Origin: Chiloscyllium plagiosum
Lineage: Eukaryota
Length of the DNA: 64,000 nucleotides
Reading direction: 5' to 3'
NCBI RefSeq assembly: GCF_004010195.1
Contig: NC_057718.1
Location: 43,523,970-43,587,969, forward strand
Positions 2,226-45,994 of this stretch are shown here, piece after piece; the first letter of the stretch is position 1; the number at the start of each line of letters is the position of its first letter. The notes under the pieces were generated by a model. That model ran no database searches, was not told where the DNA came from, and saw only the letters and a list, made by a program, of their open reading frames with translations. Position numbers and translations under genes: made by a program.

Positions 2226-2288
2226 GCTCTGAGCAGTTCATTGGAGAATGCAAGATTTACGGTTCTCTCAAACAGCTCTCACAAACAG
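2226..2288 (+). pseudogene. USH2A: USH2A pseudo-exon (human exon 5 equivalent), 1-nt deletion
   Basis: Acceptor ttcacag and donor gtaaat are intact. Reads GSEQFIG, then after a one-base shift at about 2244-2247 (gga[a]gaatg) RMQDLRFSQTALTNR. Length 63 nt versus 64 nt recalled for human. Confidence 0.88.
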
Positions 2289-2572
2289 GTAAATACATCT
2301 CAGTAGTTTTTTTTAAGTGCAGCCTTATCATTGGCATTAACGTTTGATCAAAAATGTGAGTTAATAAGATAAATGTGAAGAGCCTTTTAAATTAAATTGC
2401 ATGCTATTTGATTTATTTTGCCTACTGAATTTGTATTTGTTTTCTTTTATTGTTGGTTTTAATATGACAGAGAAATTCATGAAGTGTTTTCTTGTAAATT
2501 TCCATACATGCACACCCAAATAAACTGTTGTTGACCAAGCTCCCATCCACAAGTTCATCCACGTTTACAAAG

Positions 2573-3072
2573 NNNNNNNNNNNNNNNNNNNNNNNNNNNN
2601 NNNNNNNNNNNNNNNNNNNNNNNNNNNNNNNNNNNNNNNNNNNNNNNNNNNNNNNNNNNNNNNNNNNNNNNNNNNNNNNNNNNNNNNNNNNNNNNNNNNN
2701 NNNNNNNNNNNNNNNNNNNNNNNNNNNNNNNNNNNNNNNNNNNNNNNNNNNNNNNNNNNNNNNNNNNNNNNNNNNNNNNNNNNNNNNNNNNNNNNNNNNN
2801 NNNNNNNNNNNNNNNNNNNNNNNNNNNNNNNNNNNNNNNNNNNNNNNNNNNNNNNNNNNNNNNNNNNNNNNNNNNNNNNNNNNNNNNNNNNNNNNNNNNN
2901 NNNNNNNNNNNNNNNNNNNNNNNNNNNNNNNNNNNNNNNNNNNNNNNNNNNNNNNNNNNNNNNNNNNNNNNNNNNNNNNNNNNNNNNNNNNNNNNNNNNN
3001 NNNNNNNNNNNNNNNNNNNNNNNNNNNNNNNNNNNNNNNNNNNNNNNNNNNNNNNNNNNNNNNNNNNNNNNN
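2573..3072. other. Assembly gap (500 N)
   Basis: Run of N. Confidence 1.
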
Positions 3073-3317
3073 TTCTTCCTGACCTCTTCGTCCCCACCCC
3101 CACTCCGGCCTATCACCCTCACCTTGACCTCTTTCCACCTATCGCATTTCCAATGCCCCTCCCCCAAGTCCCTCCTCCCTACCTTTTATCTTAGCCTGCT
3201 GGACATACTTTCCTCATTCCTGAAGATGGGCTCATGCCCGAAACGTCGATTCTCCTGCTCCCTCTGCTCCTGCTGCCTGACCTGCTGCGCTTTTCCAGCA
3301 ACACATTTTCAGCTCTG
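3073..3317 (+). mobile_element. Penelope-like element 3' end / pseudo-LTR abutting the gap
   Basis: Pyrimidine-rich tract followed by cctgaaga..gcccgaaacgtcgattctcctgctcc..tccagcaacacattttcagctctg, the same terminus as at 22922-23044. Confidence 0.85.
3216..3251 (+). ncRNA. Minimal type I hammerhead ribozyme motif in Penelope pseudo-LTR
   Basis: CTGAAGA (3220-3226), one extra nt, stem II gggc-tcat-gccc, GAAA, then CGTC (palindromic ACGT, GUC cleavage triplet at 3245-3247). Confidence 0.7.
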
Positions 3318-3477
3318 TCAAAGATGTCCCAATTTGTTGGTTTTCACTATGCCAGAGGGAGAATAAGGTAAAAATAACTGAAAAATGATAAGAGTGCAAA
3401 TTAAAATATTGTATCATTAATACAGGTATCATATGAACCTGGATTCTGTGAAATACTATACATTGCTTATGTGTATA

Positions 3478-4980
3478 TAAGAACAGAAGAGTTAGAAGCA
3501 GGCCTAGGCCATTTGACTCCTCAAGCCTGCATTGTATTCGACAAGATCCTGGCTGACTTAGCCCAAGTTATAAGTTCTCCTTCATACCAGCTCAGCATAG
3601 CCATCCATTATCTGATATTTCTAATATCTAACTACCATCACAACTCTCTGGAGTAAAGAGTTTCAGAGATTCACTACCGTCAGGGAAGAAATTCCTTCAC
3701 ATCTCAGTTTTATTCTGTAACTGTGTTCCTGTAGATTAAGATTTACTCAGTAGTGGAAAAATCTTTTCAACATCTACCCTGTCAAGTCACCTCAGAATCT
3801 TGCATGTTTCAGTAAGATCAACCTCACTCTTCTAAATCCTAACAAATAACCTATTTTGTCATTCTTGGTAAGTTGCTCCACTCATCCAAGGAATTAGCTG
3901 AGTGAATTGCTTTTAAACAGCTCTCAATGCCAATATGTCCTTTTATTAAATACAGGAACCAAATCTGTACACAGTATTCCATGTGCAGCCTCACCAGCAT
4001 CCTGTACAGTTGTGACAAGACTTCCCTCTTTGCAAACTCCAACCCTCCAGCAATAAAGGCTAAAAATTCCATTTGTCTTTTTAATGATTTAATGTGCCTG
4101 CATGCTAACTTGTGCTTTTTTACAGTCTCTCCACTTAAGCAACAGTCTGCCTTTCGACTCTTCTTACCAAAGTGCATGACCTCACATTTTTCCATATCAA
4201 AAGCTATCTGCCAACTCTAACATTTTCCAACAATAGATTTCCAATCCACGAGAGACTTCTCAGAATCCAGAAACTAAAATATTTTGACAAATGCCTCCAT
4301 TGTCTTTGCAACCACTTCCTTTAAAATTCTAGGATACAGGTGATCAAGTCCTAGCAATATGTCAGTCTTCAGTCCCATTAGTTTGTCAAACACTTCATCC
4401 CTTGTGTTAGAAACTGTTCAGGATGTTTCCTTCCATTCGCACCTTTTCTTCTCTTTGGAGTGCTTATAGTGTTGTGAACTGTAAGACCAATGCAAAGATG
4501 TTTGAACATTTCTACCTTTTCCCTATGCTACTTATCAATTACCCAAATGCATACCCCAAAAGGAGAACTTCCTTTAGCTCCTGTCATTTTATATACCTGT
4601 AGAAGCTCTTGCTGTTTGCTTTTCTTAAATTGCTAATTTATTTTCACAATCAATTTTCTAGCTCTTTATTAGCTTTTCGGTCATTCACTGCTGATTTGTT
4701 AAAAAATTCCCAATCCTGTGACCTATCACATGTTTTGACCCTTTGTATGTCATAGGTTTTGATAGGATACTCTCCTTGACCAATATTGTTCACCATGGGT
4801 AGTTCATCCCTCTCATCGAGTTGTTCTTCTTGTCCAGAATAAAATTGTGCTCAGCATCATGAAATATCTGCTTAAATATCTTTCACTGCTGACCCACTGA
4901 TTTTGCCCTTAGTCTATTTTCCCATTCTGTTTTAGACAACTGTTTCTTCATATCTCTGCAATTGTCCTTATTTAAATAGA
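3478..4980 (-). mobile_element. Degenerate CR1 LINE
   Basis: Minus ORF 3851-4195 has CR1 RT C-terminal motifs (KCEVMHFG, LYRMLVRLHMEYCVQIW); CR1-type 3' tail near 3480-3560. Confidence 0.8.
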
Positions 4981-5014
4981 GGGACAGACCGATGAGAGGT
5001 GGCAGCACGGTGAC

Positions 5015-5350
5015 AGTTACAAGATGCTCTGCAACACCTTACCAAAGTTTTTGATGGTACTCTCCAAATCCATGAACTCTGTTACCTGGAAAACGAAGGA
5101 CAACTGAAGTATGGGAATATCATCACTTTCAGTTTTCCCTACACATTCTCGATTATCCTGATTTGGCAATATATTGCCAGTCTTTCATTGCCATTGGACT
5201 ACTTTGCTAGAAACACAATAGTAGTATCTTCACTGTTGAACAGAATGGTTCATAATGGAGACTCTCTGTCATTTTCCAAAGGGTAATTAGAGATGGGCAA
5301 CAAATGCTGATCTTGCCAGCAATGTCCACAACACATGAAAGAATAAAGAA
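5015..5350 (+). mobile_element. LINE 3' end fragment with a tail shared with the Deu-core SINEs
   Basis: Ends in gatgggcaacaaatgctgatcttgccagcaatgtccacaacacatgaaagaataaa, similar to 37100-37170 and 40300-40370. Confidence 0.6.
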
Positions 5351-7781
5351 ATTTTAAAACAAATATTAAATTCTGCTATCGTTTCTGGCTCTGAAACTCT
5401 TTCCACCTCTGCATTGCAGTCAACATGCAGAAGGCAATGTACTAGCAATTACTTTCTAAGCTGAAAGTTTCTGTTCATTGGCTTGAATTGAGATCTGATG
5501 TTACTACGCCAATATAACATGACTCCACAAATGGATCCAACTTTCTTGTTGACCTGAATCTCTGTTCTAGGGTAAATGAAATTCCTTTTAAAGGAAGCTT
5601 AAATAGGTTTCAGTATAAGTGGCTATTCGAAGGTTAAAGCTCTCCACTTTTCAAGGGGGATCGGAAACTAGCGCCCTTTGCAAAGCCTCCCTGGTCATTG
5701 ATCAGCTACTGCTCACATGTTGAAGTTTCTTGGCTGGTGACTTCTCAGGGATGCAGCTCCACACTAATGGAACAAACCATTCTTTCCCTGATTCTGCAGG
5801 CTACCAGGAGCAACCCTTGATTGTTTGTCTCGGTTAATGCCTGTTTTGTTAACATCATATTTATCTGGTAAAAATAGTCAGAGTATCTTAAATACTTTAC
5901 ATTGATAAAATTTAAGATGTAAAAGGATTTAAATGTGGCAAAATTGGATCGTCTTCACACTTTCACAAATAATCAGCACACAGTCAAAGAGATATTTGAC
6001 AATAGTGGTGGGTTTTCATTACTATCGGACTATGAAAGCTATTTAATTCAAAACTAATACAAGGAACAATCTCTAAATTATTGTGCTTAAAGCAGTACTG
6101 CTGACAGTAGTAAACTCTGTAATTTGTCTAAGTTGTGAGGAGTTCAAACAACTCCCGAATTCAAATTAATCAAAGCGGGATTTTTATAACATTCTGTAAC
6201 ATACATGTGATTGAAAGTTCTGAGCTGTTTTGAACCCCACCAGCCTGTCTACCATGCTAATCTGCACCTGTGCCTGTGGTGCATTATTCTTCCTTGTCCT
6301 CTAAGGTTTGTGCAGCTTTAACATAGCTGGCAATATCTTATTCTACTGCTTCCCTCTATCGTGTAACTGCAAGGCACTGCCCTGACTTAGTTTCACTTCT
6401 TATCCTATACTAATGGTCAGATTTCATGTTTATTAAGTTAACAGCTAAATCTGCCTTTCATTTGTTTGTCTGATACTCTGTCTTGTGGAGGAATTGTCCT
6501 CTGACATCTCCTATATGGGATGGTACAGACTGTATATCTGGACTTTGCTCAGCAGAAGCACAGTTATGCACTGTCTCAAACATTATTATTTTAACTATTA
6601 ATACAGATATTAAGTAAGAAACATAACTTGACCTGTTCTAAAATCTTTGGATGTTCCAGTTGGCCAGAACAAGTGGCACCAAAAATCAGTTGCATCTTTA
6701 GACAGTTTCTTCCTGTTAGATTAGGACATGTGGCTCTCAGATGTCTTCAGTATAAGAGATTGGTATAACTCAACTCTCACCTCCTTTGTGCCTACACTCT
6801 CTTTGTTACCTTCAGCTGTAAACCATAATGATCAGTCCCTCAGCCTGCTTAGACCCTTTGTTGTTCATGTTTTGCTGAAAGCTTAATAGGGTTACCTCAT
6901 GATACCTTTACTTGCTGCTGCTATTCAGCGGTTTCTCATCTCAAAATCATATATAAAACCATCTAGTCAGTTCCTCTGATTCTATAGCAACAACAAAAAA
7001 ATTAGTCTTTTGTTCAGCAACTGCCTTTGCCATGAATGTTAATGTTGTTATATCTGTCTTTCAATGTTATCTCTCTATTTCTTAGCTTGCAGATAATGTG
7101 ATTTAACTATGATTAAAGTTCTTCTTATTTTTGAGGATGCATAAAACAGATTTTCCCTTCATTTGGATAGGTTGTCAACTCCTTTATTTAATATTGGAAA
7201 GCCTAAAACCATAGTTTTTGATGCCTACTTTAAACTATGCTCTCTCGCCATGAATGAATTTCCCCTTTGTGAATATTGAATGATCAAAGTGGCTGTACGT
7301 GGTGAAAATCTCTTTACAGTTTGTATTCTTGGGTAATATTCATCAGTATTATGATGGAAATTTGTGTTTTAGATGAGGATAAGTTCAATTGAACAGGCAA
7401 TGGACGATGTCACCAACAATATGAAGTGTAATATTTTTCTGTGCGTAGAAATGATAATCAAGAAACAGAAGAACAAGCAAAAGTACTATTGTCATTGTTT
7501 TTGAAAATCACAGGAAGTCCCCAAATCCAGCTCTGATTTTGCTTTATGACCAAATACAAGTTCAGTTTCAAATCTGCAAGTGACAGGGGCCTAGCACAAA
7601 CTTGAGATATGGGATCATTCAACATTTTATGTTTCAGCTAATTTCAATGAATATGATTATAAATTGTTTTGGATACGGCATCTTTATCAGTATGTTTAAA
7701 CTTTAATTGCACTGAAGTCTTTGTGTAAATTTGCAAAACTTTTTGAAAGTTGTGTTTCCTTCCCTTTTATATTATTTGTAG

Positions 7782-7969
7782 GTCTTCTATATTATTTTGC
7801 AGTTTAGTAGCCCTTAGTCAGAAGTTGTTAAGATTCGAAGGGAAATGACAGGAAACTCTGAATAGCTAGATTGGCAGTATTTTGCTTGAGACTGCATAAG
7901 TACCTTTGGAATAGTCAATAATAGCCCTCTTGAACATCCTGATGCTGTGAATTGCCTTCGGTTTCCTCA
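7782..7969 (+). pseudogene. USH2A: USH2A pseudo-exon (exon 7 equivalent, LN domain), 3 stops and a mutated donor
   Basis: VFYIILQFSSP*SEVVKIRREMTGNSE*LDWQYFA*DCISTFGIVNNSPLEHPDAVNCLRFP. TAG 7815-7817, TAG 7863-7865, TGA 7887-7889. Acceptor tag intact; the expected donor reads atatgt at 7970. Confidence 0.93.
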
Positions 7970-10469
7970 ATATGTTTATACTCCTTGAAATCACAATTGA
8001 GAATTATATTTCCACATTGCAATGTAGCTATTGTATCTGCCCATCTTGACTAGCAATGCTCTACAAAAGGGCTTTATTGAGCTTAACCCATTGCTGAATT
8101 TGTATGATAACTTCAAACATTTGTCTACTTTCACCTTAAAATCATTTATAAAATCATATTAGATGTAAAATGTGTGCCATTTTGTTTTTATGATATACAG
8201 TTTACAAAACCATTTTCTAATCATCGATGAATTACATATCCAATTTTATGTCATAATGGTTGTTTACCCTTTTAAGCTCCATAGATGCCACAACTAACCT
8301 AAATGCAATATCACACACACACAAATTATTCCATATCTAGCATATGTGTGAAGGATGGGATGATTATTCCAATGAATACATTAGAATGTGCAAAGTGCTG
8401 ATCATTGAGAATTTTTTTAAAAATCTGTTTTTCAATATTTCTACAATCCTCTTTCTTTCAGTAGTTTATTTAACCTCTGTCCTTTACATCTGTCGGTTCT
8501 CATTATCTTGATTTAAAAAAATTTCAATATTAGTCATGTTCTACCCTTTTCCATTTAATTTATAAAGCTGCTTAATGTCATTGCCTACTTAAATAAATTG
8601 CCTGATAAATTGGGTGTGATAATAAGAAGGTTGTACTTCAGTACAGATGTAAAAAAGATAAAGGGTCACAGAACATTTCTTCATTACCAGTGCTCAGTGA
8701 ATACAATAGAGAGCTGTGAACTAGTTGTAATGTTTGTTTGGCTATAAAATAGAAAGAAAAATAGTCAAGTTAACTGCTTGAACCTTCTCCACCATTCTGT
8801 GACCAATCTGCAAACTAACTCTAAACAACTGCTTTTGTCAAAAAATCCTTAATACTTGTGATTAAGAAAAATCCATGAATCACACATATGAAATTAACAA
8901 TTGATCTCATATCAGATGCATTTTTTAGAAAAAGAACCTTTCTACATCAAAGTGCTTACTGATTTTGCACCTGACTGGTCTTAATCTAATGTTTAGGCTA
9001 TGCCCCCTACAGCAAGACTGCTCAAACAGCCAACATAGTTTGCTTCTACCTACCACAAGATTTTTGCTCCAAGATTTTCTGATGCTGTGGTGGTTACCTT
9101 CCTCGGGAAAGCTAAAAGCAAGAAGGACGTGATCTATCCATAACAGGCCCTTTTTAAAACAAACTTTACAAAGGCAAAGGAACTGGACTGTGCTGGCAAA
9201 TAATGTGAGGAATGAAGTTCCAAAGACCTGGATGCGGTGCCACAAAACGTTCAGGAACTTCACAGGAGTAGTGTCAATGAGTGTATCTTTAAGTGACATA
9301 TCCCCTTAACTGTGCTGCTCATCTCACACACTCCTCGATGCACTAGTCCCCATCACTCACTTACCATCAATCTCCAACAGTCATAGGATATTGGTTGCTT
9401 TGCAGTTCAAAAAAAAAGATCCCTTTTGAACAGGTCTTTTCTTCCCCAGAAGATATCCCAATGATCCAAAACTCTGAATTCTTGTACATTGCACCATCTC
9501 TTTGGCTATTGATTTATCTGCCCTATCTTTTTTATTCTTGCTGTCATTAGAACATAGCATATGGATTAAACAAGAGATTACTACCTTTGAGGTTCTGCTT
9601 TACTCAGCAAAGCCTTAACCCTTTTCCTAACTATGACATTCTTACAAATGTGTACAATAACTTCCGGCTGCTCACTCTCCCCTTTAACAATATTCTTCAA
9701 GTGTTTTTTTACCCCTGACACCAGGAAGGCAACATACTATGCTGAATTCCTGGTCACGGTTGCAGAACCTCCTGTCTGTGCCCCTGATGGGAGAGCCCCC
9801 TATAACAATGATCTTTTAAATCTTGACCCGGCTTAGCATAAGATTCATTCTCAGTGCCCAAGATCTGACTGACACTTATATTTCCCTCTGAGAGACTATC
9901 CCCTTCAACAGTACCCAAAACAAAACATCTGTGTGAGAGAGGAATAGCTACAAACCTTTCTTGACAGTCATAACTGTCTGACTGATCCTGCTGTGTAATA
10001 TGTCTCTAAATTTACTAACTATTACACTCTGTTGTCTCCTGGATGCCCTCAATGACAATAAGCCTAAAAAGAAATTCTTAAAAGATCGTCAGATATTAAA
10101 AACCACTCTTTCTTACCCCTACAGATTTTAATTTTGCCAAGACAAAAAGATTAAATATTTAAAATATTCAAAAAAAATCAAGCACTTAGCTGAAACTCCC
10201 ATCAACCAAAAAAGCATCTGAGCCTGTAAATTACTGTGTGTGGGAGGGAGTGGCGGGGGTGGGGGGGGGGGGGGCGGAGAAGGTGGGCAGGTGGTTGTAG
10301 AGGGGCCCCTATGTAACAGTGAAAATAGAAAGACAAATAAACATGATTCTGAATCAATAAGGACCTTGTTACTTTGTAAAGGTAGACAAGATCAAGTCAG
10401 AGAATGAGGCAACTCTGAAGATTAAGTTGTATTTATTTCAATGTTAGCGGTCTTACAGGTAGGGCTGAT

Positions 10470-11000
10470 GACCTCAGGGCATGTATGGGAGTGGGGCATG
10501 ATAGTATTACAGAGACCTGGCTGAAGGAAGTATAGGACTGGCAGCTTAATATTCCAGGTTTTAGATGCTTTAGGAAAGATAGAAAGGGAGACAAGAGAGG
10601 AGAGGGAGTGGTGTTTTTGATTAAGAAAATTATTATGACTGCATTTAGAGAGAATATTCTTGAAGGTCATCCAAAGAAGCTGTGCAGGTAGAAATTAGAA
10701 AAAAGAAAGGGATGATCACCTTGATGGGATTCTACAAAAGCTCCCATTAGTCAGAGGGAAATTGAGGAGCAAAATATGTAGATAGATCTCAGATATATGT
10801 AAGAATAATTGTATTGTAATGGGAAGAGGTTTTCATTTACCAAAGATTGACTGGGACTACCATAGTGTTACGGGCTTGGATGGTGAGGAATGTAAATGTT
10901 CAATATAATTTTCTTCATCAATATGTAAATGTATTTACCAGAGAAGGAGCGAAACTTGACCTTCTCTTAGGAAATAAAGCAGAGCAAGTGACTGAAGTGT
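10470..11000 (+). mobile_element. CR1 LINE endonuclease-region fragment
   Basis: Degenerate CR1 ORF2 N-terminal motifs (actggcagcttaatattccagg; gattgactggga; aaacttgaccttctcttaggaaat). Confidence 0.6.
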
Positions 11001-12507
11001 TTGTACTGCAGTGGTTGAAAATCTGATCTACAAGGATGTCTCAGTCTCAGAAATGAAAAGACCACCCTGTAGCATAAAACACCAATGCAAGCCTAGTGGA
11101 GGGAAATTCAATACAATCACTCAGATTCTTTGCACCTGAATCCAAAGTTGTAAGAAATCTGCTAGTAGCAGGAACAAGGCAAGGTGAGTGTTCTGCTCAT
11201 CTTTGCATGTTTTTGTGGAGCTTATCAGATACTGCACACATATAATTTCGGAATTCCGGTGTGGTATCATTTGGTTGTTGTTCTCAATTGTATTTTTGCT
11301 TTGTTTTGTTAGCCCCAAAGTGTTTGGTTAAGGCATGTGCCATAGCATGCTTGATTATTCAGCAGATGATTTAGAGTAAAAGCTAAACTGTGCTAATGGC
11401 ATAAGCAATACTATTTTGACATTTAAGTAATTTATTAAAGCATCCCAAGCCAAATTCACACAGTCAGCTTAGGCTCCACCATGACGTAAAGCTCCCAAAT
11501 TAAAAATAAGATGCACGCTGAGCCACTACACCATGCACCTGGTAGATCAGAAGTATTTCTGCAAGTTGTTGCTGTTGCGTTTTCTTTTTCGGTTTTCATT
11601 TCCCCCTTTGGTGCAATTTGCTCCAGGCATTAGTTGGCTTTGCTAGATAAGCCTCAGTTTTGCATTTTTGCTTATTTCATTTCCACTGGCAAAATGGCTT
11701 TGATTATTCATGGTTGCTACTGGCATTTAAACTCCTTTCGCAAGGAAGTGATGATGGCTTGTCTTTAGTGTGAACTCAGCTCTCTGTGCAACAGTGGCAT
11801 ACTGCCCAAGTAGTCACAGTTGCAGAGTCTTTTTGCCAGGACTGTGTTATCAGTGCCTGATTTGATGTTATTGCTTGAGATAAACAATCCATCATCGTGT
11901 TAATTTCTGTCAGTCAAAGAGCAAGAATTGTACTGGAGCAACAAAACAAGGCTAATGTTTTCTGTCTCTGAGACGAGATAAAGAAATTCATGTGGTGTCA
12001 TTAACCCACTCAATTGAGAAGGAACTGGGCTGCTAGGCAATTAAAATTGCTCAGCTCATTCTCCCTGCCCTGGAGCTGCTGGAACGTGTGGGATTTGAAT
12101 CCGTGGAACTGAGCATGCCACTCAACTAATAATGGAACAACACTTTTTGTTTGCTAAGTGATGTCACCAGGACCTAACAGCAACTTTAACACCGTTGTCT
12201 GTATGGGAAGCAGCAGTGAATTTTCTGCCAGGCCAGCTTAGTGTGCAGAAGATCAAGGCCAGAAGAGGAAATCTCAGAGCTTCATGAGAAAAGCTTAAGT
12301 TGTCCTCTACAATTGAAATCCCTGACACCCCTGCAACCAGCTGTGAGACCCCTGCAGGATATGTGTGCCTCTGCTGGAAATTGAAAGAGTAAGAAGCAAC
12401 CTGGTTGATCCATAAGATTCTGAGGGGTCTTGGGGTAAACGTGGAAATGATATTTCCGCTTATGGGAGTAAGGGTCACTGATTAAAATAGGGGGTCATCT
12501 ATTTAAG

Positions 12508-12712
12508 GAGAAAGTGAGGACTGCAGATGCTGGAAATCAGAGCTGAGAAATGTGTTGCTGGAAAAGCGCAGCAGGTCAGGCAGCATCCAAGGAGCAGGAG
12601 AATCGACGTTTCGGGCATGAGCCTGAAGAAGGGCTTATGCCCAAAACGTCGATTCTCCTGCTCCTTGGATGCTGCCTGACCTGCTGCGCTTTTCCAGCAT
12701 CACATTTTCAGC
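12508..12712. mobile_element. Short fold-back Penelope pseudo-LTR insertion with 15-bp TSD, inside a CR1 3' fragment
   Basis: Two opposed pLTR arms; direct repeat ggtcatctatttaag at 12493-12507 and 12713-12727. Confidence 0.9.
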
Positions 12713-13666
12713 GGTCATCTATTTAAGACAGATATGAGGAGAATTTTTTTTATTAGAGTAGGTTATGAGTCTTAGAATTCCTCAAAAATCAGTAGAAGCA
12801 GTCTTGGAACATTTTTAAGACAGAGGTGGATAAGCAAAGACATCAAATGTTATCAGATACAGACAGTGAAGTGGAATAATCCGATCAGGCATGAAGTAAT
12901 TGGATGGTGGAGGGGTTCAAGCAGCCTACTTCTGCTTGATGTGTTTATATGATTTCTGTCTACTTTTATATCATAGATATTAATGTGAGGATTATATCAG
13001 TGAATGGTAAAAGCAGCATGGTTTTAATGGGGAATTTTAATTTTCATGTAGATTGGGATATGCATACAAGCTCATGTCAGAAATACAGCATATTTCCTGA
13101 GTATGTTCAGGATAGTTTTCTGTAACAATGTGTGGAATCCTGTTTCTATCAGACTAAAAGTGGAGCTGGACCAACAACGGAAGGTTTGGGTTCTGCTTGA
13201 GGACTGTTTTTGCTTGAAATGACAATGAGAGAAATCTTGACTGCTGAGGCAGCCTGGACAGTGGTGGCTGTGGAGGTCAGTGCTGATTGATAACTCAAGG
13301 AAACCTGGTCCCAGTTTTGCAAGGTGATAAGCTCTGCCAGGGTATGTGGTACTGTCTATATAATGCTACATGCCCCTTAGCATTTTAAGTTTGCCATCAC
13401 AGAGCGCATACCAGGTATCTCCCTCAGATGCCTCCGATTCAAGTAAGAGTGCCATTTCATTGTAGCTATTACTAAAGTGCTACTTACACCACGGTGGTAC
13501 TGCATCTTTTACATCTGCCAGGACCCAAAATTAAACATGAAAGGAGCTTCTGCACTAAGCAGCTCATATACCATCAGCTCACTAACCTTTCTTCACAACT
13601 AAGAGAATGTACACCACTGAACGCTTCTCACCAATGGTGTACATGGGACATAAATACAATCCTTAG

Positions 13667-13935
13667 TGGAGGTGGTGACATGATGGTAATGTGAGTGGAC
13701 TAGTAACCCAGAATTCAGGAGTAGTTTTGGAGACTTGTGATCAAATTCCTCCATGTCAGCTGTTGAAGTTTGAATTCAATATAAAAAGTCTAGAATTAAC
13801 TATGTAATTGTAACATTGCAATTTTCAATTGTCATCAAAACTCATTCTGTTCACTAATGTACATTTAGGGAAGGGAATCGGCAATCCTTACCTGGTCTGG
13901 TCTACTTGTAGCTCCAGGCCCATAGTAATACTGTT
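13667..13935 (+). mobile_element. Deu-core (SacSINE1-like) SINE, degenerate
   Basis: tRNA-like head (ggtaatgtgagtggactagtaacccag) and core ttcactaatgt..ttagggaagggaatc..ccttacctggtctggtctac; similar to 40022-40370. Confidence 0.65.
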
Positions 13936-16048
13936 AACATTTTTTTGTTCATTTGTGGGATATGAGCATCACTGGCCAGCCAGCATTTAATGCCCATCCC
14001 TTGCTGCCCTTGAGAAGATGGTGGTGAGCTGCCTTCTTAAACTGTTGCAGTCCACCTGCCGTGGGTTAATCCACAATGCCATTAGGGAGGAATTTCAGAA
14101 TTTTGACCCAGTGACTGTCTTAATCATCTTCTGAAGTGGTTTAGCAAGCCATTCAGTTCAAGGGCAGCCCTCATCGTAAGGCACTCTGTTCTAATCTAAG
14201 TTTACCCAAGGACCACCCTTCGAGAGGTTTAACTGTGTCAGTCTGCTGTGATTGCTCTACTCTAGAAGATGATCAGATGGTGCAATTTTAAAGCGCCAAA
14301 TCATTTCAAGAAACCATAGGCCTGCCAAATAGGAGACCAGGGATCATAAACCAGAGATTGTATTAACTGTTACCGGTAACAGTACATCACATTCATCTGC
14401 ATCTTTTCTTTGTGTCTGTGAGCATTCTTTGTGTTTGAGACTGTGAGCTATTATGGTATTTCAGAGTAAGTATACAAGAGTAAAACTGTCTTATTTTAAA
14501 TTCACAGAAACTTGCTCCTGAATTATTTAGCATAATACTATTCTAAAAGGTAATTGCCCTGAATAGGTTGATGTCCATGTTATATTCAGTATACTCCTTT
14601 TACTGATGTTGTAAAAGATTCTTGAGTGATGTCAAAAAGTTCTAGCTTTTGAAGAGAATAAATGTATCTGCACCAGCTCCCTAAGATCCCAGTAAATATG
14701 CCTGACCTAATGTTGTTGTACATATTGCTCTCACATAACAACAGTTATCTAAGATCTTGTTATCTAAGAACAGTGCCTCTCCTGTAGATACTGTAGATGA
14801 TGATGTATATGCATAACAACTGATCACCAGATAGGCCCAAGATAAGGGAGGATTAGTGACAGTGAACTACGTCAAACAACATTGCTCAGTACCACATTAT
14901 GGTAGAGGTGGCAAATACAACAGTGTTGCATCAATGATCACTTGGGAAAATACCTCAGATATATACTCCAAATATAAGAAGAGACACAGCTTTTCCCATA
15001 CAAACATATTGATCATGGATTTTAAGTGAAGATCATTCAATCTGTGACAACCTGGTATTTAAAGATATTTGGCAAGATGCTTATATAGACTTACTTATAT
15101 GAGGGACTCAGTAGCCTGTTCCTGTGCCAATGTTCTGTGATCCTGTGTTCTACCCAATTTTCAATTACCAAGTGGAATGTTAGCAGGAAATGTGAGAAAT
15201 CACTAGAAGGATTTAAATGAGGGTAGGGGGTTAAAATATTCTTGGTTCATTTCAGAACAGTGGGTGAGATTTCATTTCATGATGTTACTTTGTAAAGTTT
15301 ATTTGTTAATTACTTTTCCCATGATTTTATAAGTTCACAACTTTTAAAGATGGCATCATGCATTTATGTGAATTATCATGCCCCTTAGGTGGATGAATTT
15401 CTGTCACCTGATGATGAGTTTGCAGAGATTTGCAAAGATCATGAGAATAATCAAATGAAAACTAGTATAGGTCCAGCCATGAACAGAGTGCAAAGAGTAT
15501 CTTAACATCCAAAGAGCAGGGAGTAAGTGGTCTTGCATTTGGATTTCTACATCTCTTAAAAATGAATGGCTAAGGATATGTGATTACCCGGAGTTCACTT
15601 AAATGTCTTGTTTAAGACTGAATCACCAGTGTTGGTTCAGGTTGTCACCATTTTGAAATTTCATCAGCATTTGAAACAAAAAATGGATGTGTCTTAAAGT
15701 CCCACGATCCTTTGTAACCATCTGTATTACTTGTTTTGTGCCTTGTGCACAGTTGCAAGGTATTGTTAAGTAAAACTTGTATTTGTGGGCTACAAAATTG
15801 AGGCAGGCTCCGTCTGTGAGCAGTGATTGAAAAGGGAGGTCATATATGCAAAAGCATGAGGTTGAAGATTGTCTTATATGCCAGTCGACATACAGCATGA
15901 TTTACAGTGAAAGGCCCATGGAATTGCTAATATAAGTTAGTGATTTCAGGTAAAGGTTTATTTGTCTGCTAAGGAAACCATTTCCATTCTGCTCAGGTGT
16001 GAATTAGTATATTTTTCTTTCCTTTCAAATTCATTTATTTTTAACCAA

Positions 16049-16270
16049 AACCACTCCATGCTCAGGTGGAAATGTGACTTTCAACATATCGACTTCTGAA
16101 CCAAGCAGGCGTCCTGGGTACAATGAATTTTGTGATTCTCCAGCTCTTCAAGAATTTGTCAAGGCTACTCATGTAAGAATTCACCTGAGAGACCAATACC
16201 GTACCAGATAAATGTCAGTGAACTTCAGGCGCAGATATTATGAAGTAAATGAAATCACTGTAAGTGGAAG
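16049..16270 (+). pseudogene. USH2A: USH2A pseudo-exon (exon 8 equivalent, LN domain), 1 stop and a mutated acceptor
   Basis: TTPCSGGNVTFNISTSEPSRRPGYNEFCDSPALQEFVKATHVRIHLRDQYRTR*MSVNFRRRYYEVNEITVSGR. TAA 16209-16211. Donor gtaagg at 16271. At the expected 222-nt length the acceptor reads aa (16047-16048). Confidence 0.93.
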
Positions 16271-18489
16271 GTAAGGTTTGATTAAGTATTTAAGAAATAA
16301 TCATTTAAGTGCTTTCCATGAATATGTCAAATCAATTGGGCAGATGTTTTCTACTTAAGATGACCAGTGGAGGATATTTTCCAATTTATCATGATTGGTT
16401 GAGTAACATTTACCTTCCACTTGAAATATTCTTACACTTTTATAGATCTTCAAATGATATTCATATTAGAGTTATGTCATTTTAAAAATGTACTGCTCAG
16501 TTTTGAAACACATTTCAGATATGAGATACAGCTTTGTTTTAATTTGATTCTTTTGACAATTTGTATTTGTGGAGTTTTCCCTTTCATTGTGTTGTCTTTT
16601 ATTAATCATTTCTTATTCTTGATATTGCATGGAAAGAAAAGAAATTACTGGGTGTGGAAGTATCTGTATATAAAGTTGTAACATCTAACATATGAATATT
16701 AATGAGTCACTAATATTCGTGTAATAAGGCACAATTAAAGCAATTTATATTTGGCTGAATATGATCAAAACTATTTCATTATTACTGATCCTTGTTATCA
16801 AGGGTAACAATATATAAGCTGATTTTAACTTTCACAACAGTGACGTTATCGCTGACTAGATACTTCACTCCTGGAAGTGATTGAAATAGTGAAACAGAAC
16901 TAAATTGCTACAAGAGTGATCATCTGCAGATCTCAGAGGTACAGTGTAAATTGCTCATGGTTGAGCAAGCCTTGTAATGAAATGTACTTGAAAATGTAAC
17001 CCCTCCAGCACATTAGTTAATATACTAAAGTACACCTACAAAGAACATCTACAAAGCTACAATATGCCAGTTACCTTTGAGCAACCCTTAAAACAAATAA
17101 ACAATTGTATAGATGAGTCTGTTTTATAAGTATGTACAACGGACAATCTTTAGCAATCACTGTATTGAAAAGTAACAAGAAATGACGTGGCATTATAACA
17201 AAAATGTCAAAAGTGCATTTATGTTGGACTTCCTCCTTCCTCGAAGAATCCTTAAGCTGGTCCTGCAGATCTGATTTTTTAAAAAAATGTGATTGCCACA
17301 AAACCTTTCAAAAGGACTAATTCAAGTCTTTGTTCTTATTAGGTTCACAATCCTTTTGTGCACCTATGGTTTGGACTGCAGTTTGGATTGATGGACTCCA
17401 GTGCTGAGGATATACTAGATCCGTAACTAGGCCCAAAGCAACAGAACTTTAAAGATCAGAGACCTATATCCTCTTCTCTTTTTAAGTCAATGGCCTTGTA
17501 AAGGGGAGGCGAGGACTCTATTCTCATGTGGCCCTCCTAAGGAAATCTTCGTGTAATTCGTATTGCATTTTGTTGGAGCAGCAGTCCACTATCACATTGT
17601 AATGGAGTTGTTTTGTGGAATTGCTGTGGATTTTCTGACTAACTTTTTATTTCTGATGTTTCTTCTTTGTTGTTTGAGTCTTGGTGTGATGTAAAAAATG
17701 CATTATTAATTTTTAACTTCACTTATTTTACAGTTTCAGAAAGGCAACAACAAATGTTGGACTTGAGGTAAAAATGTGCATGATATTCATTGGAACAATC
17801 ACAAATTAGCCAGCATTTGATTCTCTGAATTTTGGAATATCTGGCAAGATTGCAAGGTCCTAATGTGTTACTTGGCATTCGATTATCTGAACATTCAATT
17901 ATCCAACAAAATACTTCCTGCCCATATCGTTCGGATATCCTCTGTAGTGTGAAAACTGATCTTTAGATAAAATATTGAACTGAATCTTTGGTTTTAATAC
18001 CTAATTCATTTCTGATTGTGTGGAAATTTCTTGAGTGTCTTTCACTATGAGAACAAACAAGTTTTCTCCCCCCATCTGCCAAACTCTTCTTATGAATGAC
18101 TTACCCTGCTGTTATGGTGTTTCTCAGTCTGATTTTCATCTTATTGTGTGTCTTTCCCAGAATGACATCCATCCCTTCTGCCCACCTCACCTCTAAAAGG
18201 CTGATATTTCAAATTTGCTAGCTTGTTCAAGGATGTAATGTGAACATATCGGAGTAGGAAAAGATAGCACTGTGATTCTTCAAAGGGATTTGGAGATCCT
18301 GAATGACTGACTAGCCTCAAGAACTGTCAAGAACATCTAGAGAAAATGTGCTGATCTAGACAACCCTCGTTCGATGAATGAATTAAAAAAAAAATCCAAA
18401 TACCACTCCTCTCCCTTGCTTGTATTTCTTGATGGCAAGGTATGTTTGGGCGGGAACAGGATTGGGATGAGTCCCTAATAGCAGTGCAG

Positions 18490-18720
18490 GGCATTAGAAA
18501 GACAATATTCCAAGGTTCTCAGACACTGCATTGGAAGTTGTGCTGTAGAGGAGGAACGATTCTTCTGTTCACAGGGGCTCAGGAAATCATCCAGGTATCG
18601 ATTAATAAGTCAGTGGAACCTGATAGCTGTCACAGTGAGTTCCTCTACCGAGACCTAAGGATTTGGCCACATTAGGGCAACAACTTCTATGACCATCAAG
18701 TCATCAAGGTCAGTGTGCAT
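18490..18720 (+). mobile_element. Possible PIF/Harbinger Myb/SANT-like remnant
   Basis: Degenerate W..IAVTVSS..PRIW-like pattern followed by ttctatgacc..aaggtcagt; recognised by eye only. Confidence 0.3.
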
Positions 18721-20083
18721 CTTCAAACGCCATTTCCTAACAATGGAAGCACTACACTCTTACACTGCTCAATGTACAAAATCTTATGTCTCTTACAGTG
18801 CTGACATTCACATCACCTAAGCAGATTACACCATATTCACTGCCATGTGACTTTGTTTTTGTAAAGGAAGGTGTAGCATATCTAGAATTGACAGCACCTA
18901 AATAGCGAATATACACATTGCATAAATTCACTGCCAGCAGATGAGACGGTGATGAGACTGAAACTATCTGTCAGTTCTGGAATGTTCATACTCATCCTCC
19001 TCATTTTCCATTTCCACCCGATTGCATAATCATTTTGTTATTATAAACTTCAGGTGATGTAAGCATGTACCACTTCCCTACCACAATCCAGAACTTTGAG
19101 CTTCTCTTTTACTCCTTACACAAATACTGCAACCTGTTCAGGCAGGGTTAGAAGAGAAGGTGTAGAAGAGCTGGAAGACAGTGATGAAGAAGATCCGCCC
19201 ATTCACTCTAACATTTGTAACCAGCCAGGTATTGACTTTGCAAATGCAGATAGGTCACTTAAATCTGGACTCTGTTTTGTTGTATGCAAAGTTTTGTGTT
19301 ATGCTTCTTGCCTACATGATATTTGCTTGTCCCTCAATTCTCTCATGCTTCCCTCTTTGAGGAATATTTTAGCATTGCATGAGAGTGCAAAACAGATGAT
19401 AGTGATCTAGTAATCAATGGAAATAAAAATGAATAATGGAAATAAAATTTTAAAAATCTATAATTGCCCCATGATCACAACTCCACCCTCAGCCTGATTG
19501 TGAGTTAGACAGCAGCAAATTAGTACTGCGTCCATTTCTGGGGTAATGGGGTCATGTTAGCATCGGAGAGTATACAAAGGAAAGTCACAAAGCTGATCAT
19601 TTGTGTTGAAGTTTAGTGATCAAAGAAGACTGTGGCACTTAAAAGCCTTGAACATGGACATTCTGAAAGTGAACTTACCGAGGTATAGAAGGTTATAAAT
19701 AATGTAGATAAAGATAAATTTGTAAAGTTACATCACAATGGCCATTCAAACCAGAAGAAATTAATTTAGGCCCAATGCCAAGAATTTCTTTTCCCGACAA
19801 ATTATTATCACTTGGAACAGGTTCCTAGATGTTGTTAAAGTGGTAAAAGCTCCTATATTTATTTAAGAACTAATTGGATACCAGAAAGATGGGAGGAGGA
19901 GTCAGTGCAGAAACTTCTAGAGCTGTACTGGATGATTAAATTCATTTATGATTTGAGTCATGCTGCTTAAATAGGTTTTAACTGCCAGAGTATTGAATTC
20001 TGGCACATTGTAGATTGTCTGGAAGCAAAATAGTGTGTATGCTTCATTATTTGGCAATTGCCTTTTTTTTGTCTTGTCTGCAG

Positions 20084-20176
20084 GTGTGCCTGCTACAGTC
20101 ATGCTGATCAGTGTGACACTACAGCCAATCCATACAAATTCTGTGTGCATAGGAGAACCACATAGAGGGTGATAAT
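20084..20176 (+). pseudogene. USH2A: USH2A pseudo-exon (exon 9 equivalent, laminin-EGF 1), frameshift and stop
   Basis: Acceptor ctgcag and donor gtaagt are intact. CACYSHADQCDTTANPYK, then a 1-nt deletion at about 20139-20140 (Cys codon reduced to tt), then LCA*ENHIEGDN with TAG at 20150-20152. Length 93 nt versus 94 recalled. Confidence 0.9.
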
Positions 20177-20244
20177 GTAAGTTTGTACAAAGACTGAAAT
20201 TACCATTGAATTACATAAGTTGATTTTAGTTAATATTTCAGTCT

Positions 20245-28495: not shown

Positions 28496-28501
28496 TGTTG
28501 C

Positions 28502-40500: not shown

Positions 40501-41031
40501 AGAAGCTTTCTTATATAAAGTAATGCTACCTGTCCCAATTAAAGCAGCATTCACAGCTTTTATGGGGAAGGCTTCCAACTGGAACTTATACCTTCCGTGG
40601 TAGATCTTGGATTCAACAGAAACAGTAATAATGAGTGATGTAAGCAGACTGCTGACTCACTGTCACCCATTATACACTACCACACACAAAGTCAAGATCT
40701 ATCCCATATGTATTCAAAACCATGCAAGTTATATTTGTTGCCTATTCAACTCTTGATTGCAAAAATGTGCATATTATTTTTGTATGAGAATCATTTTCTA
40801 ATGTATGAATTTTGCTAAGCAGAAATTCATTTTTCTGATATTTATGCACTGAGTGTTTATTATTTAAGGAGTATGTGGTTGTCAAGTGAGTGTTAGAAAG
40901 AGAAACATTACAAAGCTTAATTCCTAATGTTGAAAAATAAAATTTTACAACTGTTAAAAACATGTACACGAATTTGTATTCCGCTACTTTGTACTGTTTA
41001 TTTTCTAATGTCATCAATAACTTGTTTTTTT

Positions 41032-41220
41032 GAGCACTGTCAGCCACTCTTCAGTGACAAGTCTTTCCATCAAGGTGAACTGATTCATGCTTAAACCACA
41101 TAAACCTTGCCAGTGCTATGATCAGGCCATCAGCTGCCACCATAACACTTCAACAGATCCATTCTCTCATGACTATTTCCAAGATGGTGGTGGAATTTGT
41201 GATAACTGTCAACATTGCTG
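41032..41220 (+). pseudogene. USH2A: USH2A pseudo-exon (exon 10 equivalent, laminin-EGF), stop, frameshift and lost acceptor
   Basis: EHCQPLFSDKSFHQGELIHA* (TAA 41092-41094), a frameshift near 41095-41101, then KPCQCYDQAISCHHNTSTDPFSHDYFQDGGGICDNCQH. Donor gtaaat at 41221. The pyrimidine tract runs into the exon with no AG and no first Cys codon at the expected place. Confidence 0.9.
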
Positions 41221-43199: not shown

Positions 43200-44960
43200 A
43201 GGAATATAACAACTTTCCAAAATTATTAAGACCAGGAGCAGGCTATTTAGCTCTTCAATCCCTTTTTTGTGTTCAGTAAGATCTGTTCCATCCTCTACTT
43301 CAATTCTACCTTCCCAGACTATTTTTATATTTCTCAATTCCCTTAGTACCCCAAAACCTATCAATCTCTGTCTTGGATATACCTGTATTCAATGATTCAG
43401 CGTGGACAATTTCAGGAGTGGAGAATTCTTTTCATTGAAGGGGCTTAGAATCACAGAGTCATGGAGATATAGAGCACAGAAACAGACCCTTCAGTCCATC
43501 TCATCCATGATGACCAGATATCCTAAATAGATCCGGTCCCATTTGCTAGCACTTGGCCCATATCCCTCTAAACCCTTCTTATTCATATACCCATTCGGAT
43601 GCCTGTTAAATATTGTAATTGTACCAGTCTCACTTCATACACGCACCACCCTCTGTTTGAAAGGTTTCCCTTTAGGTCCCTTTTAAATATTTCCCCTCTC
43701 ACCTTAAACCTATGCCTTCTAGATTTGGACTGCGCCATCCTGGGGAAAAGACCTTGTCTATTTACCCTATCCATGCCCCTCATGATTTTATAAACCTTTA
43801 TAATGTCACTCCTCAACCTTTGTCGCTCTAGGGAAAATAGCCCCAGTCTATTCAGCCTCTCCCTATTGTTCAAATGCTCCAACCCGACAACATCCTTGTA
43901 AATCTTTTCTGAAACCTTTCAACTTGCACAAAATCCTTCCTATAGCAGGGAGACCAGAATAGCATATGATATTCCAAAAGTGGCCTAGGCGAGGTGCTGA
44001 ACAGCCACAATAGGGCAGCATGGTGGCGCAGTGGTTAGCACTGCTGCCTCACAGCATCAGGGACCCAGGTTCGATTCCAGCCTCGGGAGACCGTCTGTGT
44101 GGAGCTTGCACATTCTCCCTGTGTCTGTTTGGGATTCCTCCAGAGGCTCCAGTTTCCTCCCACAATCCAAAGATGTGAAGGTTAGGTGGATTGGCCATGC
44201 TAAATTGCCCAGAGTGTTCAGGGATGTGAAGGTTAGGTGCACAAGTCAGGGGTAAGCATAGAATAATAGGGTAGGGGAATGGGTCTGGGTGGGTTATTCT
44301 TCGGAGGATTGGTGTTGACTTGTTGGGCCAAAAGGCCTGTTTCCACACTGTTGGGATTCTATGAACATGAGCTCCCAACTCCTATACTCAATGCACTGAC
44401 CAATAAAGGAAAGCATACCAAACGTTTTCTTCACTATCCTATCTACCTGCAATTCTGAATTTCTTTTAATGGAATTCCTTTTCACTCTTATCAGTCCTGA
44501 ATGACTGATCCTTAATCTGAGACTATGACCTCTAGTTATGGACTACAACAGAAGAAACATATACAAGCTTCTACTCTGTCAAGCCCCTTAAGAATTAATG
44601 GGTAGTTTAATGTTTCACTGGAATTTTGATCCACTGATCCATTGGTAGAAAAAGATCTGAATGTTTGGCGATCTGTTTCAATTTTGAATGTTTAAGTTAA
44701 ATCATTTGTCATTCCTCAAAATTCAAATAAAAGTAAGTCTGGTCTACTCTATCTTTCTTTAAAGCCCAATTTCATCATGCCAGGATTCCATTGGCTAAAT
44801 CTTTGTTGCACTCTCTGTCAGGGGAAACCAAAACTGTATGCAGTATTCTGTGTGCAGAATCTCATCCCCTTAATATTTCAAGCCCTTTCTAATAAAACGT
44901 AACATAGCATTTGCCTTCATAAATGCTTGCTGTACCTTCACGCTAACACTTTCATATTCA
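43200..44960 (-). mobile_element. Nested CR1 fragments with an HE1-like SINE
   Basis: Minus ORF 43583-43882: RLNRLGLFSLERQRLRSDIIKVYKIM..RHRFKVRG. Confidence 0.8.
44013..44363 (+). mobile_element. tRNA-derived V-SINE (HE1-like)
   Basis: A-box tggcgcagtgg, B-box ggttcgattcc, V-core (gcttgcacattctccc..tttcctcccacaatccaaaga), CR1-like tail gggccaaaaggcctgtttccac. Confidence 0.88.
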
Positions 44961-45863
44961 TGTATATAGATTATTATTATGAGGTTATTATTATACTCCT
45001 AAGAATAAAATGGCAGGGAGATTATAATGGACTACAAACCTGTACTTGTTTCAAAGAATATTGATATAGATATGACTCAATTTAAAGAGTACACTATTTA
45101 AAATCTCTCTGTGAGATGGTGACAAGTTGAGTGGGATTAAAGAAAATCAAAGTTGCTTTCCAGGATAAAAGTTAATATTTGTTAACTCCATAAATCTCGT
45201 TACGTACCCACTCTTCCATAGCTCAAATCTCTACCATTCCCAGCCACTGTCTACTAATCCCCCTACTGCCAAACCAACCTCTCCAGCCCCTTTTCACTGC
45301 AGTTAGCAAGGAACTGAAACAGAATGGAAGTATAGATTGCGGCCATTCAGCCCATTATATTGACTCAATATGTAGCCTTTTTCAAACGAGTAAGCTATTT
45401 ATGGTGGCAGAACAGGTGCTGACATCTTATTTAAGTGGCAGTAACTGCCTGAGTCCCAGTTTCAGTCTGGATTTTGGCCATCCCATGGGGCATACATTAT
45501 TTTTGTGTGTTACCTACTTCAGGTCCAAAGTGCTTCACCCAAATCGACAAAATGTCTCTTTTAAGCATGACTCTGGATTCCATCTACACATGTACCTTGC
45601 ACAATGATTCAGTAAGGCTACACCCAACCCAAAATGTTCATCAGCAGTTCCAGATCACCACAAGGTGATCTATATTTCCATTTAAAAAATTGAGCTACTA
45701 TCTCTGTCTGCAATTACCATCTAAAGTATCTTGAGGCAAACTTTGTGTTTAAACTTTTAACAGAGTTGAGTATTTGCAAACCTTGTGCACTTGAGCATAT
45801 TTGAATCAAATCTACTTTGAAAGTCTGATTAATCTGTGAACATTGTTCAATCAACTCTTGTAA

Positions 45864-45994
45864 GAAGAAATTGTGAATGGTGTAGAGACTATTTTTACTG
45901 AAAAGTAGATGTCTGCCACTTATCAACTGATGTGTGCAAACCTTGTGATTGCTTACAATCTGGAGTCATAAATGGGAACCTCCTGTGTGATCAG
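45864..45994 (+). pseudogene. USH2A: USH2A pseudo-exon (exon 11 equivalent, laminin-EGF), stop and mutated acceptor
   Basis: GRNCEWCRDYFY*KVDVCHLSTDVCKPCDCLQSGVINGNLLCDQ. TGA 45899-45901. Length 131 nt, as recalled for human. Acceptor reads taa (aa at 45862-45863); donor gtgggt. Confidence 0.93.

Follow-up and report, generated by a model that had tools for sequence, protein, structure and literature searches.

The USH2A (usherin) locus of a galeomorph shark is very probably a unitary pseudogene with an unevenly decayed coding sequence

Usherin, the product of USH2A, is the ectodomain partner of ADGRV1 in the ankle links and the periciliary complex, and its loss in humans leads to Usher syndrome type 2A, with deaf-blindness, or to non-syndromic retinitis pigmentosa; no other cause of Usher syndrome type 2 is as frequent. 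An Ush2a-null mouse has reportedly been described by Liu et al. in 2007, zebrafish ush2a mutants exist, and shortened 'mini-usherin' constructs as well as exon-13 skipping have been proposed as therapy. The protein is retained from invertebrates to mammals (named matches in our usherin searches include mollusc, annelid and hemichordate proteins), and among sharks full-length usherins are annotated in Cetorhinus maximus, Carcharodon carcharias, Mustelus asterias, Scyliorhinus canicula, S. torazame and Heptranchias perlo, with usherin isoforms annotated in Pristiophorus japonicus. These intact shark usherins, whose function is assumed from their open frames, share one collinear domain order from the signal peptide to a terminal '...TDTQL' and appear to have exon breaks at the same residues as the locus described here. 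A natural change is known from the cavefish Sinocyclocheilus anshuiensis, whose Ush2a carries two amino-acid replacements in a gene that is otherwise intact (PMC4698820). For cartilaginous fishes, two reports describe the loss of noggin1 in elasmobranchs (PMC10869764) and of PXR in some chondrichthyans (PMC6539745).

The stretch of 64,000 nucleotides analysed here (the window) very probably belongs to the USH2A locus of a galeomorph shark, single and orthologous, which is a unitary pseudogene from which full-length usherin cannot be made. Its + strand carries seven collinear usherin exons, every one disabled; in total, they have 8 in-frame stops and 4 indels that shift the frame, and have lost 4 splice sites. 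A sequence-only reading of the same DNA had proposed six collinear, disabled exons; collinearity and the separation by introns held, while the true count is seven, since 2226-2572 comprises two exons, and all seven are broken by stops, frameshifting indels, lost splice sites or combinations of these. Its seven nonsense codons (TAG 7815, TAG 7863, TGA 7887, TAA 16209, TAG 20150, TAA 41092 and TGA 45899) were found at their given positions in the frame that aligns to usherin, and an eighth, TGA 2532-2534 ('NCC-stop-PS' against shark 'NCRCPG'), is newly found. The three frameshifts it had placed at about 2245, 20140 and 41100 were all recovered, with a fourth, a 5-base loss at about 41215, to be added, and its four broken splice sites correspond to 4 lost out of 13 visible.

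In human numbering, the window holds usherin exons 4, 5 and 7-11; the lengths of its exons with indels allowed for (64, about 101, 185, 222-225, 94, 196 and 131 bases) are presumably equal to those of the human exons. The first (2226..2288, + strand, 63 bases), which we take to be the equivalent of human exon 4 with its 64 bases, has an intact acceptor (cacag before GC) and donor (gtaaat after CAG) and is one base short at about 2244-2247, between 'GSEQFIG' and 'RMQDLRF'; it encodes '(G)SEQFIG / RMQDLRFSQTALTN(R)', the halves of which align to shark 'GSEQFIGRMQDLRFYQTALTNR' in different frames. It is followed by a frame-preserving GT-AG intron of 182 bases (2289..2470, + strand), across which AG joined to A gives Arg and the alignment runs on as '(R)EIHEVFS'. 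The next exon (2471..2572, + strand), presumably the equivalent of human exon 5, reads 'EIHEVFSCKFPYMHTQINCC', the stop at 2532-2534 and 'PSSHPQVHPRLQ', aligned with 'EIHEVFSGKLPYIHTQTNCRCPGTHPRVHPLVQ' of the sawshark. Its 3' end abuts an assembly gap, a run of 500 N at 2573..3072. The window lacks the exon expected between 2572 and 7782 (Carcharodon residues 321-384); it was found on the unplaced contig C96568 (L009 1501-1710, minus strand), which probably belongs in this gap.

Two Laminin-N-domain exons on the + strand come next, both scoring above Pfam's cut-off for Laminin_N. The exon at 7782..7966 (185 bases, E 3.7e-7) contains the first three listed stops and has tc after 7966 in place of a gt donor. 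That at 16046..16270 (E 1.8e-7, with usherin database matches) lacks an AG acceptor, which leaves its start uncertain (16046-16049), and carries TAA 16209 and an intact gtaagg donor. The first laminin-EGF exon (20084..20176, + strand, 93 bases) has both splice sites intact, a single base gone within a Cys codon at 20139-20140 and then TAG 20150. The laminin-EGF exon at 41029..41220 (+ strand, 192 bases) has no AG ahead of 41029, TTT as its first Cys codon, TAA 41092, one surplus base within 41092-41101 and the 5-base loss immediately ahead of the exon 10 donor, itself intact (gtaaat). The last (45864..45994, + strand, 131 bases) is preceded by aa rather than ag, has TGA 45899 where other sharks have Arg, and keeps its donor (gtgggt). 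Pfam gave no Laminin_EGF match in the three broken laminin-EGF exons; the identity of these three rests on alignment to usherins.

Database searches returned seven proteins, six of them named, and all six are usherins (58-68% identity). Per-exon identity to shark (sawshark) usherins is 63-89%, other LN-domain loci of the genome reach just 29-33%, and the best matches are usherin and not laminin or netrin, the families that the sequence-only reading had named as its possible undoing. The window exons match shark usherins at tblastn E values of 1e-8 to 1e-27, in protein order and on one strand, which excludes a chance match. A maximum-likelihood tree nests the window sequence inside Galeomorphii (support 100/100), as sister to Lamniformes plus Carcharhiniformes (87/89), in agreement with the earlier view that the host is a shark. 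Its end branch measures 0.31 against 0.056-0.084 from root to tip in intact galeomorphs, exceeding the branches of intact sharks four- to five-fold in length.

The whole locus extends well beyond the window, with USH2A exons collinear over C9:43,413,061-44,395,559 (about 983 kb) and the domain order following one strand of C9 from Carcharodon residue 10 to 5227, with about 2080 of 5227 residues sampled and Laminin_N the only domain confirmed by Pfam. Ligand-binding exons of ESRRG, the neighbour proposed for a synteny check, lie upstream on the same strand at C9:43,278,977 and 43,282,000, about 131 kb from the first usherin coding exon, and are best matched by ERR-gamma (PDB; 174.8 bits vs 144 for ERR-beta). 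In jawed vertebrates, ERR-gamma is flanked by single-copy USH2A (PMC7617844). For the other neighbour, KCTD3, whose BTB domain is split over short exons, a BTB_2 search gave no match around 44.4 Mb of C9. The proposal of an orthologous locus and a unitary pseudogene is upheld by a broken and syntenic locus with collinear exons behind ESRRG and with no second copy found in the assembly; seven other shark species have annotated usherins. A processed (retrotransposed) pseudogene was ruled out by the introns of 0.18 to 21 kb between window exons and by the syntenic position. Stop-codon read-through or a variant genetic code was also ruled out, because all three stop codons are present along with frameshifts and splice losses.

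Decay is pervasive upstream of the last seven exons, where the 1717 codons aligned ahead of residue 4866 contain 22 stops (the gene-wide mapping took in about 2080 of 5227 codons). The large FN3 exon has 6 stops on its own, and USH2A exon 2 has 2 stops and frame changes around the ATG. Full-length usherin would be blocked from the outset by a start codon out of frame with the signal peptide, and most sampled ectodomain exons carry a stop or a frameshift, have lost a splice site or have had a cysteine replaced. Upstream of the terminal block, 302 of 1272 sites (23.7%) that are invariant in six intact sharks have changed in this lineage, compared with 2.3-3.7% by the same measure in intact galeomorph lineages, and protein divergence is raised eight-fold throughout. 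Neutral evolution over the whole gene fits most exons at this level and fails for the last seven and a few isolated ones. Well-kept ectodomain exons include those for Carcharodon residues 662-726 (4/64 changed), 1548-1591 (3/36) and 1961-2029 (6/64), and the exon at C9:43,612,071 is also well kept, at 89% identity. A purely neutral relic should not show such uneven decay.

One alternative is that this locus is a duplicate pseudogene and that an intact, functional USH2A lies elsewhere, perhaps in unassembled sequence. The assembly is indeed fragmented (101,977 contigs, with gaps), the present locus is itself interrupted by a gap, with one exon displaced, and three of the five second-copy searches used a stricter first pass able to miss matches. 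However, an intact copy is expected to share about 90% identity with the catshark queries and to top every list, and sturgeon and catshark usherin pieces found no second copy in the 3.56-Gb assembly; matches above about 50% identity were confined to C9, where they follow the protein order, and, for the missing exon, to C96568. With the ancestral neighbour ESRRG and the full intron-exon layout over 983 kb also kept here, we consider a duplicate very improbable. Sequencing or assembly errors in a working gene are more improbable still, to the point of being negligible. Long-read assemblies are prone to indel errors and four window lesions are small indels, but most lesions are stop-creating base substitutions and the eight-fold raised divergence runs throughout the protein. 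Moreover, the lesions open to check, for which the sequence-only reading had suggested raw reads, are seen again in contigs assembled independently from this species. Those of a second study (X5) have T at 7815, with 0 of a depth of 9.1 reading otherwise, and repeat exons 8 and 9 (16046..16270 and 20084..20176) with their lesions, including a one-base deletion. All differences in those pieces fall outside the exons: the contig over 15855-17020 differs only at 16641, at 16718 and by a 14-base gap at 16777, and that over 19659-20289 only at 19794, 19955 and 19957. An X1 contig over 7700-8937 has 2 differences in 1238 bases, at positions outside those listed, and so confirms the stops at 7863 and 7887 only indirectly; across this comparison of same-species and related contigs, the differences listed are 40 of 632 for bases and 12 of 65 for indels. 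The T at 7815 was seen in two runs of the same species, while two relatives read CAG, with C there. The comparison with relatives covers this one position, at which they are not broken, and the listed contig of relative B ends at 20061, short of exon 9.

A different question is whether the gene is dead in its entirety, as the sequence-only reading had it; this stands for full-length usherin and does not extend to the last seven exons, which are unlike neutrally decaying DNA. These exons, at C9:44,372,800-44,395,560, stay open in one continuous frame that ends at the natural stop, and all 13 of their splice sites read AG/GT. They specify the final one and a half FN3 domains, followed by the transmembrane helix, the cytoplasmic tail and the PDZ-binding end '...TDTQL'. 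Neither frameshifts nor stops occur in the last 362 residues (0 stops observed vs 4.6 expected, P about 0.01), and of the 269 invariant sites there, 26 have changed (9.7%; Fisher test against the 302/1272 upstream, p = 7e-8). In the transmembrane-plus-cytoplasmic part the count falls to 9 of 140 (6.4%), with intact lineages at 0.7-4.1% there, and the 24-residue alternative exon of the tail is identical to Carcharodon at 23 of 24 residues. These features would fit a gene that is partly dead, its ectodomain lost and its last seven exons still yielding a selected product from an internal or new start, a reading that we regard as possible though doubtful. More specifically, we tentatively suggest that after decay of the ectodomain the 3' block may have been kept by selection as a small membrane-anchored product docking with the whirlin/PDZD7 scaffold, a natural 'mini-usherin'. 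If true, the part that usherin plays in the intracellular scaffold would be separated from its part in the extracellular links. Against such a product, the first in-frame Met past the last upstream stop would leave about 170 residues before the membrane helix and no signal peptide, and the block's three exons for FN3 sequence take a middle position (17/129 changed, 13%), making its edge a gradient rather than a sharp boundary. Furthermore, the isolated ectodomain exons are kept equally well yet cannot belong to such a product; decay may therefore have been slowed in all these exons by something else.

Returning to the unitary pseudogene, the loss is probably old, as judged from the stop density, which would correspond to roughly 10% neutral divergence since constraint was lifted. 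This is five to six times the per-lineage divergence estimated from two related species in public runs, and the relatives should therefore carry the same dead gene. Decay would still be under way, with the stop at 7815 private to this species. Loss of the ectodomain may be common to a whole order of sharks; the best 120 of 383 database proteins included no usherin from carpet sharks, bullhead sharks or rays.

The partner gene ADGRV1 appears to be retained. Its presence is deduced from C2:47.54-47.75 Mb, where an EPTP exon lies between Calx-beta exons of the same strand and a protein-atlas comparison of the C2 exon gave no finer label than 'Calx-beta'. All five exons sampled are without stops, and a check for co-decay accordingly found no sign of it in these five. 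We infer that this shark builds its hair bundles and photoreceptors without the usherin ectodomain and with ADGRV1 apparently still present. A shark lineage that has long been without this ectodomain would be a natural knockout, with hair cells in ear, lateral line and electroreceptors and with working photoreceptors, and could reveal to what extent usherin is needed by ankle links and the periciliary complex, and what makes up for its absence. The uneven decay provides a testable lead on which part of usherin remains needed. The top-ranked papers of a full-text literature search contained no earlier report of USH2A loss in a shark.

Compared with the usherins of intact sharks, which are 84-97% alike, the present sequence is 70-74% identical to them over 1989 sampled columns, and where theirs are open frames of 5221-5330 residues this relic has at least 22 stops together with frameshifts, lost splice sites and replaced cysteines. 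Full-length usherin is absent here as it is in human, mouse and zebrafish USH2A loss. Those clinical and experimental losses, however, are recent lesions associated with disease, whereas the shark loss would be an old and fixed one in a species living in the wild, whose eyes and hair-cell organs work. Therapeutic mini-usherins retain the signal peptide and much of the ectodomain; the shark 3' block, if expressed, would be a far more radical natural shortening that keeps the membrane anchor and tail. The Ush2a of S. anshuiensis is likewise a natural change, discussed in connection with sensory regression, but unlike the shark locus it is not a pseudogene. As reported for noggin1 and PXR, some cartilaginous fishes lack a gene that vertebrates otherwise conserve, or have it in a decayed state; gene and tissue differ, and the USH2A relic can be traced exon by exon at its ancestral locus.

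The window occupies C9:43,523,970-43,587,969 (plus strand) of the Chiloscyllium plagiosum assembly, which comprises 3.56 Gb in 101,977 contigs, and contains three N runs, the longest at 2573-3072. Plus-strand translation at the places singled out by the sequence-only reading gave recognisable laminin-N and laminin-EGF sequence broken up by stops. Laminin_N was matched above the Pfam cut-off by the exons at 7785-7967 and 16050-16271, and three broken EGF-type exons of the window gave no Pfam match. The proposed identity as usherin, as opposed to another LN/LE gene, holds: used as a protein query, the 74-residue exon 16050-16271 returned seven proteins, and all six named ones are usherins (58-68% identity). 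Searching the window by tblastn with sturgeon, opossum, narwhal, alligator, sawshark and white-shark usherins recovered seven collinear exons, which bears out the collinearity claimed earlier but not the count of six, as 2226-2572 comprises two exons around a 182-base intron. Once indels are corrected, exon lengths equal what we take to be those of human USH2A exons 4, 5 and 7-11.

Exon boundaries were read from the sequence and lesions from alignments to usherins; all seven exons lie on the plus strand. The exon at 2226-2288 has good AG and GT signals and lacks one base between 'GSEQFIG' and 'RMQDLRF'; a GT-AG intron that keeps the frame (2289-2470) separates it from the exon at 2471-2572, which carries a TGA at 2532 and runs at its 3' end directly into the 500-N gap. 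The exon absent between 2572 and 7782 was found in reverse orientation on the unplaced contig C96568 (locus L009), its exon proper free of stops, and probably belongs in this gap. Of the two Laminin_N exons, 7782-7966 has TAG at 7815 and 7863, TGA at 7887 and tc at its donor position, and exon 8 (about 16046-16270) has no AG acceptor, a TAA at 16209 and a good donor. Exon 9 (20084-20176) has both splice sites good, one base missing in a Cys codon and a TAG at 20150. The exon at 41029-41220 has a good donor and no AG acceptor; its first Cys codon is TTT, a TAA stands at 41092, and it has gained one base and, close to its 3' end, lost five. The exon at 45864-45994 has aa as acceptor, TGA at 45899 and a good donor. 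These add up to eight stops, four frameshifting indels and the loss of 4 of the 13 visible splice sites. All seven stops listed from the sequence alone are present, TGA 2532 being the eighth; the earlier count of four broken splice sites stands, while that of three frameshifts becomes four. The 21-kb intron between 20176 and 41029 also holds, beside two N runs, broken minus-strand retroelement reading frames (21124-22209, 23818-24690 and 25448-26161) matching reverse transcriptase, reverse transcriptase with RNase H, and integrase core.

Those lesions that could be compared recur in independent sequence. Public runs containing the stretch represent the same species (organism A, sequenced in three studies) and two related ones, B and C; contigs of two A runs from different studies (X1 and X5) and of a single run each for B and C were compared with window 7700-20300, with 40 of the 632 base differences listed individually. 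Position 7815 is T in both A runs (0 otherwise at depths of 9.1 and 8.0) and C in B and C, giving CAG, the glutamine of intact sharks. This TAG is private to the window's species relative to B and C, and the relic is therefore still gathering lesions. Relative to the window, the X5 contig over 15855-17020 shows no differences other than those at 16641 and 16718 and a gap of 14 bases at 16777, and that over 19659-20289 none other than those at 19794, 19955 and 19957; all lie outside exons 8 and 9, so that the lost acceptor and TAA 16209 of exon 8 and the one-base loss and TAG 20150 of exon 9 are reproduced in a second study. For the stops at 7863 and 7887 the one supporting contig is that of X1 over 7700-8937, with two differences from the window at unlisted positions. 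Differences from the window number 63 in 1833 bases for B and 82 in 2041 for C.

No intact second USH2A copy was found by five assembly queries, namely the window's own exon, 1690 residues of sturgeon usherin and three catshark fragments covering roughly residues 395-2400 and 4140-5227. Usherin-like matches above about 50% identity were confined to C9 (43,413,061 to 44,395,559, in protein order) and C96568, and the remaining matches were laminin-, netrin- or FN3-type paralogues (24-52%). Three of these searches used a stricter first look that may miss weak matches; an intact copy would be expected to match strongly. Upstream on usherin's strand lie two nuclear-receptor ligand-binding exons (C9:43,278,977 and 43,282,000), the former with its best PDB match to oestrogen-related receptor gamma (174.8 bits versus 144 for ERR-beta and 106 for ERR-alpha). 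In jawed vertebrates, single-copy USH2A is described as flanking ERR-gamma (PMC7617844). Of the two neighbours suggested for a synteny check, ESRRG is accordingly in place, and the locus sits at its ancestral position, but KCTD3 was not found. Outside the window, the ATG of exon 2 is out of frame with the signal peptide, and that exon also contains two stops. The equivalent of exon 13 shows replaced cysteines, one stop and at least two frame changes; there are one to three stops in each of the FN3 and LamG exons, and a 1.25-kb FN3 exon has six stops and several indels. Sampled columns upstream of Carcharodon residue 4866 hold 22 stops in 1717 codons. The USH2A locus is broken along most of its length, and the earlier proposal of a unitary pseudogene in a shark is supported with two riders: the partner ADGRV1 shows no sign of decay in the exons sampled, and decay at the 3' end of USH2A departs from that of the rest.

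The last seven exons (Carcharodon residues 4866-5227; C9:44,372,800-44,395,560, loci L033, L034, L066, L030, L067 and L032, outside the window) have no stops or frameshifts, all 13 splice sites intact and a frame unbroken to '...TDTQL' and TAA. Among sites without variation in six intact sharks, this lineage has changed 302 of 1272 (23.7%) upstream of residue 4866, 26 of 269 (9.7%) in the last 362 residues (upstream versus terminal block, Fisher test, p = 7e-8) and 9 of 140 (6.4%) in the transmembrane and cytoplasmic part; intact galeomorph lineages have changed 1.5-2.2% in the last 362 residues. By our summary, change in this block is three to four times lower than in the remainder of the dead gene. 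At the upstream rate 4.6 stops would be expected there (P of none ~0.01), and its 24-residue alternative exon is identical to Carcharodon (white shark) at 23 of 24 residues. The simplest reading for the block, which we hold only tentatively, is that it may be kept under coding constraint, perhaps as a putative short membrane-anchored product. A few isolated exons of the ectodomain are likewise well preserved, being 86-94% identical to intact sharks and without stops between heavily decayed exons (L002 1558-1752 at C9:43,593,358; L013 1504-1635; L007 1504-1710; and an EGF-type exon at C9:43,612,071-43,612,229, 89% identical); changes number 4 of 64 for residues 662-726, 3 of 36 for 1548-1591 and 6 of 64 for 1961-2029.

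Across 1989 sampled columns, identity to seven shark usherins is 70-74%, compared with 84-97% among those seven. In a maximum-likelihood tree with 16 rows the sequence falls within Galeomorphii (support 100/100) and is the sister (87/89) of Lamniformes plus Carcharhiniformes, a position where carpet sharks or bullhead sharks would be expected; its end branch is 0.31, against 0.056-0.084 for intact galeomorphs from the same node. If a stop arises from about 4% of random sense-codon substitutions, a textbook figure that we take as an estimate, the 22 stops found in 5151 bases correspond to a neutral divergence of about 10% since the gene was released from constraint (Poisson range roughly 6-15%), in agreement with the 23.7% of invariant sites that have changed. 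Since each lineage has diverged by ~1.7-2.0% in the comparisons with B and C, the loss would be several-fold older than the split from them, and B and C would be predicted to share most lesions. Among the best 120 of 383 database usherins, sharks of three other orders rank top and no carpet-shark, bullhead-shark, ray or skate protein occurs, which could hint at a wider loss or reflect only database gaps.

Four Calx-beta exons and one EPTP exon were sampled on one strand of C2:47,536,568-47,751,745, all without stops. To our knowledge this combination occurs only in ADGRV1, so the locus is probably ADGRV1 and, from these five open exons, the ankle-link partner seems to be retained; the suggested co-decay left no sign in them. 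A separate EPTP-repeat cluster at C4:11,814,869-11,815,405, with two in-match stops, adjoins an intact cluster (C4:11,839,556-11,840,344) and perhaps represents a tandem duplicate, now decayed, of an LGI/TSPEAR-type gene. Among the top-ranked papers of a full-text literature search, none was found to describe loss of USH2A in a shark or any other vertebrate. The nearest case among them is a cavefish reported to have two amino-acid changes in Ush2a (PMC4698820).
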